A stretch of DNA of 64,000 nt, from NCBI RefSeq assembly GCF_964204645.1, contig NC_134028.1, forward strand, positions 21,758,345 to 21,822,344, read 5' to 3'. The notes beneath the pieces are model-generated. The model was not told the DNA's origin. It made no database searches and worked only from the letters and a program-made list of their open reading frames with translations. A program made the position numbers and the translations under genes. This DNA comes from Tubulanus polymorphus (lineage: Eukaryota; Animalia; Nemertea). This document shows, in pieces, positions 48,301 through 54,300 of this stretch (positions within the stretch are counted from its first letter, which is position 1; each line of letters starts with the position of its first letter).

Positions 48301-51300
48301 GAATGAATGAATCTATTTTGCATTTCAAAATTACATTATAAAATAGAAAAATTGGCAGGGTTCCAGGGTTTGACACTTTTCGAGGAGTTGTCAAGGAGAA
48401 CATTTTTCTAATAGCAAATATCTCAATATTCAAGATTTCCAGGACTTTTTGGCATTTGCTCAAATTCAAGAAAAGACCTTGAAAAACAGTTTTCAAGAGT
48501 CGTAAGGAACCTGCCAAACATGGACCGGGAAGCCTGAATTAGGAAAACGGGAAGGGTTGAAGATTTCACACGTACCATGATTCCGTGATGAATGAATCCC
48601 CGACGGAATCTCGCCGGATTCAGATGCGGATATTCCTCCGTGCTGGTGACTTTGATTCCCCAGATCGATTTCCACGATTCGTAGAGCTGCTCGTGCACGG
48701 GATAAACCCCTGAGTGATGCGGCGCCACCGCGTAAGAGTTGTTCACCACGATTCCCTTTTCCTAAAACGTGACGGGGAAGAAAAAAACGATGAAACATTT
48801 ACGCACCGGTCCCGATTAGCAGCCAGCTTAATCCAGATTAGTTCGATATCGTAATTATTTACTTTTTAAAACGATCTATCAAAGCTCTTTAGGAAACATG
48901 TATTTTTTTAGCATAGTTTAAAACCAGCTTGGTTATAGTATCAGTACATAATGCTGAATCATCATCCTATTTCAAATCAGACTAGGCAATTAAGCAGAGT
49001 AGGTAGGCTACTCGGGTCTTTTTTTTGGATATTTCAATATACTTTCGTCTTATTTCCTTTTTACGTTTTTGCTTAATTTTTGGCCACGCCGGAAATTGAA
49101 ACATAGACATCAGTCTCGTAAACAATAAACGGCTTTATTTATCGCAGGCGATTAATGTTGCAAAAATATTTATTCAGTTACGAATCAGCCAGCCAGCCAG
49201 CGAAAGAGAGAGACAGGCTATAAACTACCGGCAGGACACGAAACATTGCTAAAATCGATCGGTATAACTAATCTCTAGCGTCCGCGCGAGACCATTAATA
49301 TACCCATCTCACCGAGAGACAGATCGATCAAACGAAATTCGCAAATTGGTTTTTCACTTAAATTATACACGCGCGAGCGTGCGTGCGGGCTGGCGAATAG
49401 GAAATAAACTCGTATAGGTTGTTCAAACGAGTTTTCTACGCGACTCATCAATCTCTTCGTTTAGTTATTCTATTACGTACAACGAACGAGCATTGATTTT
49501 TACCGGTCTGGAAATTGAAAATAACATGATCGAATCGAATATTGAAGGGATACAGAGACCGGAGGAGACAATTGGAGGGTAATGATGGACACCAGTTGGA
49601 GGACACTAGTGGATACCAGTTCTGGGACACCAGTTGGTGGACACTAGTGGATACCAGTTCTGGGACACCAGTTGGAGGACACTAGTGGACACCAGTTGGA
49701 GGACACTTGTGGACACCAGTTGGAGGACACTAATGGACACCAGTTGTGGGAAACCAGTTGGAGGATACTAGTGGACACCAGTTGTGGGACACCAGTTTGA
49801 TGACACTAGTGGACACCAGTTGTGGGACACCAGTTGGAGGAAACTAGTGGACACCAGTTGTGGGAAACCAGTTGGAGGATACTAGTGGACACCAGTTGTG
49901 GGAAACCAGTTGGAGGATACTAGTGGACACCAGTTGTGGGAAACCAGTTGGAGGATACTAGTGGACATCAGTTGGAAGATACTCGTGGACACAAGTCAGA
50001 GGATACTTTAGTGGACATCACTTGGAGGACACTAGTGGACACCAGTATACACAATCAATATTGTTGCATCAAATATATTTTCCAATAAATACATAAGAAT
50101 AAATAGGCTATTACCAAATCCCATATGATATCATCGAATTGGATCTTATATACCGCCGGAATGACCACAATAGCATTGAAGGGTTCCTTATTCAGTAAAC
50201 AATAACAGTAAAACTGTAACAGTCAAAACACAGTAAAACGTATTGAACTTATTTTAGTCACGATGATCATTATTTCTATGACTTATTCAAAAGATGACTT
50301 AATTCAATGAATTATAAAATTGGGACTAAAAAATAGGGACAACTTCAGTAATTCGTCGACTCATTCAAATGACTTTTTTAAGTGAATTCGACTGTATATA
50401 ACGACGTCCACGGGTTGGTTCTTTTATAGCGAGCTATTTTCGCGATTTCATTCGTTCGTTCTCCGGTTTCGTGTATCTCTTCAATATCGATTCGATCTCG
50501 ATGGAATCGTGCGGGGAAATCAAACTAAACTAACGAGGATTCAGATTTAAGAAAACAGATGGAAGTAAAGGAAACGAATGATAGCGGTTACATCACATTA
50601 AACAAAGCTCGAAACTAGAATTCAAGGTCGAGAAACGAAGAAAATGCATGATTTTAACTAGTCTAACGGATATATATATATATATATATATATATATATA
50701 TATATATATATATATATATATATATATATATATATATATATATATATATATATATATATATATATATATATATATATATATATATAGATATCACACGAAA
50801 ATAATACATCAACTAAAGATTGAAGCCGAGAAGCCGAAGAAAGCTATTATTTTTTTCTCAACGAAATTAGTATGAAGTCTGGTTAGAAAGACGACGCTTA
50901 TTTTTGTTGTCGTTGTTAGAAAGCTGTAGCCCGATTCGCGTATGATCTCACGGGGCCTTTGCGCGCACGGCAAGACGTAAACCAAAAACCAAGAAATAGA
51001 AGCGTCCGGGCTGGGTTTCATATAGACATGGACGCAAAACAATCCAAAACCAGTTATGATTACAGTTTCTCATTGTTACTATGATGGTCAAGATTGAGGA
51101 TTTACCCCTTGTGGTAGTTTTGATACTCAGTCTATGAAACCGGGCCGCGAAATGCAGCGCGCGCTAGGCTTCGGCGAGCTTTCGCGAAAAAGGCACCCAG
51201 GTCCCGGTGATTGAGTTTAAATAGTAGTGGCCCTTTTTTCTTGTTACCTTTGCGAACCCTTTGTTAAAAAGCAATTCTTTGTCGATGGCATCCTTAGTCA

Positions 51301-54300
51301 GCAGTGAATGGGCCTGGGCATGACTCCACATGTGGTCGAACCACCAGAATGCATGCCTATGCTCTAAAACGATAGAAGACAATCCGGGACTGGTGATGAA
51401 GTTGTTTGTTTTGTTTTTTCCGACCACTATTGACGTGCACGGCGACTAAAGGATTAATATGCACAGACGGCTGCAGAGAGCTACAGTGTACTTCAGAAAC
51501 ACATTGTCTTTCTTTTCAATGGATACAGCGAAAAAACCCGGGCCCAGTTTTATAGACTGGTATTCACTTTAACCCACGGGCTAACTTAAATGCAAATGAA
51601 ATGAGTTAACCACTCAGTCAAGAGTAACCAGTCTATAAAACGGACCCTGGAGAGGATTTCTGTCTGATCAATGTGTGAAAATCGTTTAATGCAAACTATG
51701 CAGGAATTCAGCGTTAAGGAGCTTTGAGGTACACGCCTACCATAAACAGACACGGTGTTTATAAGGCCATCGAACATTTTAGTATCGATTTGACGAGAAA
51801 GACAATTCTTCTGAAGTTGGCTATCGACATCAACATAACACAAGGAGCATTAAAATAGGTAGGCTAGAAATAGTAGTAGTAGTAGTAGTAGTAGGAAGGA
51901 GCGAGGATGGGGTAGATTATCAATCAAATCAATACATTTTCAGAAACCGGTTAATCAACTGAAAGTAAAAGATGGATAGAGTGAATATGAATTTCGCTAA
52001 TAACTAAAATCAAAATAGCCGCGTTTAAAAAGCTTTCGCATCATCAACGCAGATCAATGACGACGGTAATGTGCTAGTGCGTAAACCCATCGGATTAGCA
52101 ATTCATCGTTTTTACCCCGAACCCTCCGGACAGAATGAATTTCGAGTCTTGTCGGAAAACGAGCCCAGAATTTCTAGCCGTTCAAAGGACAGCCTCACAA
52201 GATAAGGGCTGAATTTCAACAGGTACATGCGTAGAGTCTATTGTCCCTCCTTCGGCACACAATAGATCATTGATTGACCCCCTACTCACCATAGAATAAG
52301 TTTGCACCCCTGACATCATAAATTGCACCCCTAACATCATAGATTCACCATCCCCCCCCGCACTAACATCACAGATTGATTGATATGCGATGATGATTTG
52401 TTATGATTTGCAGCGCGTGGTGCGGAGACTCGACACCCGGTCATCTATCGAGTTCTTCGCGAGTCGATACAATTTCTTTACCTTCGCGAACTGTTTATTA
52501 AACGACAGTTCTCGTTCCAACACGCGCGAGCTGTCGACTTTATGCGGCTGTAGGTGGCGCCACATGTGGCCGAACCACCAAAATTTGTGTTTGTTCGCTG
52601 TAAGAGAATGGTCAACGAAAAGAACAGATAATATGAACTGCTGCAAAAGAACGGTTACTGATACTATGATCTTAAGCCCACAGCGCGCGCACGGCAACAA
52701 GACAAGAAACACTGAAACAAACTTTCAGTGCCACCTAGTGATGATAAATGTAATAATTGTATCACATGACACCAAAATGGCAGCGATCGTGATTTCAGAC
52801 ATGTGATCAGCTCGTTGTAACTGATTGGTTGTTGTGTTTCAGTGTTTTTCTCTCATCCTCCCTCGGCAGGGATTGGAACCTGATTGATGGCAGAAACTTG
52901 TCGCAGTACAAAACCCTTCCACTCTAACCCACGTGCGCAGATACACATATAGCTAAGATGATGTCATTATTTGCCAATCAGAAATTCCGTTTTATTTCAG
53001 CACCGGTTTTTCCATTTACAGTTCTTCCGTAGAATCTGCTTCAGCAATCTGATTGGTGACGCAAGTTTTCGCGTGTCAAACCTGCGAACCCGATCTAGTG
53101 TGGCAGGGTTTCGTGCCATGGCTCAGTTTCCAGCGATACCATTACAGGTTCGAATCGCTGCCGAGGAAAGCATGTGTTTCTGCGTGATTCCTAGCATCGG
53201 TCCTTAACAATCGAAACGGTGTTTCTCGTTTCAGGGCGGGCCCGTGCACTCAGTCGGGAAATGAGCCTTATTTCGTGCCGTGTGCGCTAGGCTTTAGATT
53301 AAAACGAGGAGGCGAATAACCTCAACCTCCTTGACCTGTGATCAGAACATAAATCAATAGATTGATCCTTGATGACTGTTATCTTACAAGCCGGTATATC
53401 TATTTCAGTGGTATTTGAACCAGAGGGACTGCTGCACCCGCGGCAATAATTCACCGGATATTTTTTTTTCCTTACTAAACCATGTTTTTGATGAAATTCG
53501 CCGCGGCAATATTAGAACCTGTTAAAAATCAGCAATTGGCCACAGAAATTTGCAATGAAAAAATCGCTTCAACACTTCAGTATTTCATCTGCAGATATCT
53601 AAAATATTTGTATCTAGTGCATTCATTGTTTAAAATTTGCAACGATAACCTTTTGACCATTTAGGGTCACAACAATTATAGATATATGCGCATGTCGATT
53701 CATGTTATACCAACAAATACGGCAACTGCAAACAACAAACTATTATCACCTAAAACTAGTTCGAAGTCAACTCGGGTACACCTCTCCATTTGCCAGTTAT
53801 ACATTTCGTGAAAGCTTCTCTCGACAATAGCTATTTCTCAAGCTGTAAAATGTGCCGACACGTTTTCTACAGTGGACTCCTTATTCGTTGGAAAGTTACC
53901 GGGTTTGATATTTGATATACGTACAGTAGTCGTGTGGTTCCCGATGGAACAATTACATTTTGCTGCTATAGAATTTCTTTTCTCGATTTCGAGCCTTGCT
54001 TTGTAAAGAGATTCTGAGCAAAGTGTACTCGACAAACTATGACATGAGTCATATAGAATACAGGTTTCTCCTAACCCTACTAACCCTAACCCTAATTTGC
54101 AAGTGGTAATGTAGAAAAACAGACCACATAGATAATCTTAACCCTAGCTTCTGATTGGTCAGAGCTGGTTACCTAGTATGCAACTGCCCATGTCTTTAAC
54201 CCTAACCAAAGCTTCTGATTGGTCAGAACTGGTCATCAGGTATGCTAATTGCCTACATGCTTAATCTTAACCCTAGCTTCTGATTGGTCAGAGCTGGTCA

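Follow-up and report, generated by a model that had tools for sequence, protein, structure and literature searches.

Tandem copies of the metal-ligand exon in an NDST gene of Tubulanus polymorphus and a likely exon swap in the deacetylase domain

NDST enzymes lay down the blueprint of heparan sulfate, which in turn controls signalling by Wnt, Hedgehog, BMP and FGF. The gene considered here is an NDST of the nemertean Tubulanus polymorphus, encoded on the minus strand of a stretch of 64,000 nucleotides (contig NC_134028.1, positions 21,758,345 to 21,822,344; the window, in whose own positions all coordinates are given), in which the exon for two metal-binding histidines is present in two tandem copies. 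Homologous exons whose swap retunes one enzyme are familiar from pyruvate kinase, in the form of exons 9 and 10 of PKM1/PKM2. Tandem duplicated exon substitution, in which homologous exons are mutually exclusive, is a reviewed class with Ca-alpha1T as a protostome-wide example, and NDST has no matches in the main text of that review (PMC9741552). In human NDST1 the catalytic metal is held by H389 and H393 together with D320, and alanine mutants of H389/H393 are inactive; the residues of the exon discussed below have no match in three text files of the supplements to that study (PMC10864358). In CE4 deacetylases, the loops around the cleft set the deacetylation pattern (PMC5855634). Invertebrates have been described as having a single NDST, one enzyme having sufficed until the vertebrates (PMC4359090), and an earlier preliminary description of this DNA, made from the letters alone, agrees with that source in assigning them usually one gene.

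The gene is a complete NDST by Pfam, PDB sequence and fold searches. The N-terminal, deacetylase and sulfotransferase domains are found in one chain (PF25119, PF12062 and PF00685, respectively), and the fold search returned human NDST1 chains at a template modelling score (TM-score) of 0.92-0.93. Coding exon 1 (61467..62507; 347 aa) specifies the membrane anchor, the N-terminal domain and the catalytic Asp pair D330/D331, and is identical to P0001, a T. polymorphus protein that NCBI names NDST-like and all 892 residues of which were placed on 12 exons of the window, exon A (below) included. The upstream constitutive exon (57001..57127; 127 nt) ends in phase 1 and the downstream one (48576..48761; 186 nt) starts in phase 0, while the remaining eight coding exons (42379..47944) encode the rest of the deacetylase domain and the sulfotransferase domain, the codon for H540 lying in exon 46777-46595. 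A 52-nt tandem repeat of 4.3 copies at 47632-47857 extends over the 3' end of NDST exon 47944-47816, whose last codons and flank recur in it.

Between the two constitutive exons lie exon A (3a; 52482..52597) and exon B (3b; 51248..51363), also on the minus strand and separated by an intron of 1118 nt (51364..52481). The preliminary description had reported two homologous 116-nt exons with equal phases (1 to 0), canonical splice sites and open frames, and this is what the window contains: both exons are flanked by AG and GT, and each is open in frame +2. Their splice signals hold 15/20 and 14/20 pyrimidines, inside the spread of 11-17 at the other exons of the gene. Half of the residues (19 of 38) and 59% of the bases (69 of 116) are identical between the copies, six of the 19 common residues are encoded by different codons, and all ten consecutive residues at exon positions 19-28 differ. 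A tblastn comparison matches A to B at E 7e-10, the introns that flank them have no similarity at blastn E<=0.01, and neither tblastn nor an exon profile revealed a third copy in the window. Also as claimed, the frame survives with A alone or B alone and is lost with both or neither: omission of both shifts it, and inclusion of both leads to a stop 21 codons into B (51298..51300), 50 nt before the end of B and with eight more junctions downstream.

By alignment, residues D330, D331, H400, H404 and H540 correspond to human NDST1 D319, D320, H389, H393 and H529, so that the Asp-His-His triad for the metal is present along with the general acid and the general base, and H400/H404 are encoded in either exon (codons 52568-52566 and 52556-52554 in A, 51334-51332 and 51322-51320 in B). 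The exon had been equated with the deacetylase active site; it does hold the HxxxH metal ligands, but these are two of five needed residues, the others being encoded in coding exon 1 and exon 46777-46595. In the AlphaFold model of P0001 the exon comprises a strand of the barrel (396-399), the His loop and a helix (413-430), with predicted local distance difference test (pLDDT) values of 85-97, and the model matches human NDST1. The copies vary in the loop and helix that directly follow the metal ligands.

The same swap is found in relatives. Across 30 hand-picked protein clusters, with at most 15 members listed for each, two exon versions occur among the members listed in eight: Lineus, Lingula, Liolophura, Octopus (three species), Owenia, Limulus with Tachypleus, cuttlefish and P0282. 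We take these taxa to represent five phyla, that of T. polymorphus included. Isoform pairs number ten (Lineus, Lingula, the chiton Liolophura, three Octopus species, Acanthosepion, Limulus, Tachypleus and a cephalopod-like cluster), and in every one the differences are confined to the exon span; the split first codon differs in eight (E/A or K/N), its first base being common, as a phase-1 boundary requires. Within the cuttlefish cluster, P0470 (eight assembly contigs) and P0472 (three) are full-length, come from contigs of at most 5029 nt and differ only in the exon block; they are likely spliced transcripts with one exon each. The tandem arrangement itself is visible in Owenia P0122, cuttlefish P0374 and P0282, which read through both copies; in the Owenia model P0122 the copies are joined in frame, the second started a few residues in. 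Both His ligands are kept in all 18 exon copies listed, and the third His in all except the downstream copy of Owenia P0003, which has both ligands. Exon B is identical to Lineus isoform X2 at 24 of 37 residues, and the horseshoe crab copies are identical at 36/38 and 38/38 positions between genera and at 20/38 to each other. Both exons are conserved in relatives, which carry them as alternative database isoforms, in support of the preliminary description; the age and spread of the pair had been underestimated there.

Other candidates for a duplicated exon were discarded. P0278, P0279 and P0283, the top multi-stretch matches of the representative search, are unrelated repeats, and a partial repeat in P0091 looks like a model error. 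A metagenome scan reduced 125 pattern matches to two loci, of which L002 is a chance match; L001:7334-10064 is an arthropod-like, intron-poor NDST with one copy, its His segment lying within one long exon, and intron loss of this kind would remove the swap.

Exon anatomy, frame logic, the retention of both ligands and the recurrence of the swap in isoform pairs from five phyla are direct observations. We are fairly confident that they are best explained by an old tandem-exon swap: the NDST gene would carry two old copies of the exon that specifies both metal-binding histidines together with the loop and helix that follow; as only one-copy messengers keep the frame, it likely makes two enzyme forms by splicing that likely differ in their grip on the sugar chain. 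Several observations weigh against this explanation. The only spliced contig of T. polymorphus, X1, joins the upstream exon, A, B and the downstream exon, and a spliced chain in which A and B are joined departs from strict mutual exclusion. The skip junctions 57001>51363 and 52482>48761 are absent from the listed contigs, and exon B is missing from the database model of the species, which has A only (P0001, a cluster of one). Among the members listed, 22 of the 30 clusters have one version only, including Haliotis, Mytilus, scallops, Patella, insects, Daphnia, decapods, ticks, spiders and Branchiostoma; such clusters do not prove loss, because exon B is missing even from the T. polymorphus model. 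Finally, a 57-row exon tree, with four changes, does not separate two clean classes.

The alternative that survives best concerns only the origin of the pair, namely that several independent duplications (such as one in spiralians and another in horseshoe crabs) took the place of one in the protostome ancestor, and we place it somewhat below an even chance. Approximately unbiased (AU) tests were run on 14 exon sequences of 38 columns, two Tachypleus rows having been dropped as near copies; the A and B labels were set by eye from motifs, which makes tests on labels partly circular. One ancient duplication is not rejected, its fit being close to that of the free tree (p 0.57), and per-genus duplications are rejected (p 0.018). 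Duplication once per phylum is a borderline case (p 0.068), and neither a separate horseshoe crab origin (p 0.18-0.31) nor a recent duplication in T. polymorphus alone (p 0.11) is rejected by this test. The 57-row tree, which puts Limulus X2 beside deuterostomes and the Owenia copies at odds with their labels, also favours independent origins, as does the statement in PMC9741552 that convergent exon duplication is common in orthologues. Against them stand the same exon span in all pairs and the order of the copies, the one with Lys after the third His being upstream in the window, cuttlefish and P0282, and ambiguous in Owenia. Exon B groups with Lineus X2 with strong support in two trees (97/95 and 98/93), which implies that the protein frame of B has been maintained since the divergence of these nemertean lineages, and within molluscs as within nemerteans like copies group across distant species. 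Judged by these groupings the pair dates far back in nemerteans and in molluscs alike, and a single protostome origin is possible.

The second alternative accepts that both isoforms are made and holds that they are catalytically equivalent, the pair being kept by tissue-split expression or drift. This we regard as distinctly unlikely, although three points are in its favour: all catalytic residues are common to both forms, many lineages have one version only, and single-copy NDSTs are equally variable in the same loop. It fits poorly with the retention of both copies in five phyla, with the grouping of like copies within molluscs and within nemerteans, and with the contrast in horseshoe crabs between near-identity across genera and divergence between copies. 

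Under the preferred explanation, the proposed difference between the two forms, both of which should be active given their common catalytic residues, lies in charge. Lys follows the third His in 8/9 A-type and 1/9 B-type copies, and A-type net charge is higher in 5/7 pairs and equal in 2/7, the labels in both comparisons being partly set by these residues. With more basic residues next to the metal, the A-type copy would prefer chains that already carry charge and so alter the length of N-sulfated blocks; by analogy with NDST1 and NDST2, we propose that A and B differ in binding to charged chains and in the resulting block lengths. A wider reading, which we offer tentatively and hold to be doubtful, is that the protostome ancestor had two NDST enzymes from one gene, a splice switch of the metal-ligand loop setting tissue-wise heparan sulfate block patterns as the counterpart of NDST1/NDST2 and double inclusion serving as an off state; flies and other model invertebrates would have lost one exon, and this loss would account for the swap having been missed until now.

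Splicing in T. polymorphus was followed in assembly contigs only, from runs none of which is recorded as RNA; contigs lose rarer paths and give no junction counts. The X1 contig (1156 nt, depth 24.9) has GT-AG joints 57001>52597 and 52482>51363, uses both splice sites of B and removes the intron between A and B, and its loose end after B matches the start of exon 48576..48761 with one base difference. In length it corresponds exactly to 30+116+116 nt and the six exons that follow, spliced to completion. It is thus probably a completely spliced messenger that contains both exons and has lost the reading frame. Exon B starts with AG (51363-51362), and an acceptor two bases further in would allow in-frame double inclusion; X1 uses the first of these two acceptors. 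Runs X3 and X4 yielded unspliced low-depth pieces only, which speak neither for nor against either form. Of the four junctions named in the preliminary description, 57001>52597 and 51248>48761 were seen and the two skip junctions were not; the isoform pairs of relatives use one exon at a time, as claimed there, and X1 speaks against strict mutual exclusivity in T. polymorphus.

These data give some weight to a third alternative, in which B is mainly a poison exon in T. polymorphus that shifts the frame when spliced after A and lowers NDST output, the B-only enzyme being rare or lost. The X1 path branches neither where A ends nor where B starts, and an unbranched assembler path suggests that double inclusion is the commoner form in the X1 library; the A-only database model and the stop inside B, with eight junctions downstream, point the same way. 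On the other hand, B keeps its frame, both His ligands and most of the residues of Lineus X2, which a pure poison exon would not need, and the evidence comes from one run and from contigs in which rarer paths are lost. We judge this alternative unlikely, slightly more so than equivalence. Under the preferred explanation, two forms by exon swap, exclusivity in T. polymorphus is likely enforced after splicing, by frameshift and decay of messengers with both exons, instead of by a tight splicing block: the A+B form is out of frame, so that exclusion applies to the full-length protein only, and frameshift with decay would be the likeliest filter. Steric exclusion was rejected, as it is limited to introns of about 50-60 nt and that between A and B measures 1118 nt.

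Base pairing between introns and exons offered no convincing basis for exon choice, the candidates being weak, partly repeat-derived and from one species. An exact-stem scan of introns against exons did no better than shuffles except for local hairpins, and a duplex scan gave two pairs just past 15 shuffles, one of them between repeat copies, which were not counted as evidence. A GC-rich 13-nt motif has exactly two occurrences in the window, against 0.01 expected: 88 nt upstream of A and 275 nt downstream of B. Each of them, and also a repeat arm on the upstream side of B, can pair at about -33 to -36 kcal/mol with a stretch that lies 66-125 nt downstream of B (motif copies and pairing stretches at 52697-52665, 50973-50941, 51182-51121 and 51565-51536, minus strand). 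Seen in one species, this stretch is possibly a competing-pairing site, or a relic.

That the pair is an assembly artefact or a recent dead duplicate has a negligible probability and is refuted by the orthologous pair in Lineus, by the splicing of both exons and by the X2 contig (a DNA-type run, depth 25.5), which is unbroken across 50850-53538 and, with 14 base differences to the window, shows that a second haplotype or individual has both copies on a single molecule, in keeping with the divergence of the copies and their unrelated flanks.

The remainder of the window holds other genes. A gene with WSC-domain repeats lies at 8647-10927 (+; PF01822 in the scanned ORF), and exons of a Rab11-FIP3/4-like gene at 15563-31849 (+; EF-hand and PF25450 matches) are convergent with NDST. 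Two related Ser/Thr-rich ORFs (6884-7729, +; 2176-1373, -) have no Pfam match and lie in inverted arrangement, each near an ORF with a dermatopontin domain (5300-5671, +; 3563-3063, -); by eye they may resemble beta-pore-forming proteins. An intronless 421-aa ORF at 13792-12530 (-), partly coiled coil and without a Pfam match, is possibly derived from a mobile element; its C-terminal stretch resembles, by eye, a GIY-YIG nuclease.

The swap is real and conserved and apparently undescribed: no description of an NDST exon swap was found in the open literature, subscription journals lying largely outside that coverage, and both isoforms stand uncommented in public annotations of relatives. Genome annotation misses it, as in T. 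polymorphus, where the model lacks exon B. A swap at the catalytic metal site that is kept in five phyla contradicts the view that one NDST sufficed until vertebrates. The natural enzyme pairs, which differ in only about 20 residues, would allow a direct test of which region within the deacetylase decides the length of N-sulfated blocks, and would also be useful for enzymatic heparin synthesis.

The kind of system is well known; its catalytic place is unusual. Like the exon-substitution class as set out in PMC9741552, the NDST pair consists of tandem homologous exons of equal length and phase, old and conserved, swapped in otherwise identical isoforms; what sets it apart is that the swapped exon carries metal ligands for catalysis in an enzyme that modifies glycans, and that both copies are present in the one spliced NDST contig seen. 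PKM1/PKM2 belong to another family, and their swap changes allosteric control, not metal ligands. The CE4 subsite capping model (PMC5855634) shares the His-x3-His motif 2 and cleft loops that set the deacetylation pattern, but was derived for chitin deacetylases. Human NDST1 (PDB 8CCY, 8CD0, 8CHS, 9F6Z; PMC10864358) is alike in whole-length sequence and fold, with D319, D320, H389, H393 and H529 all conserved; among the vertebrate proteins retrieved, which were cluster representatives only, none has an exon swap at this place, and vertebrates diversify by the gene copies NDST1-4. Where vertebrate NDST1 and NDST2 (PMC11011245) are separate genes that differ over their full length, T. polymorphus has one gene and a stretch of 38-39 residues, which would serve the same end, variants for different patterns of N-sulfated and N-acetylated (NS/NA) domains.

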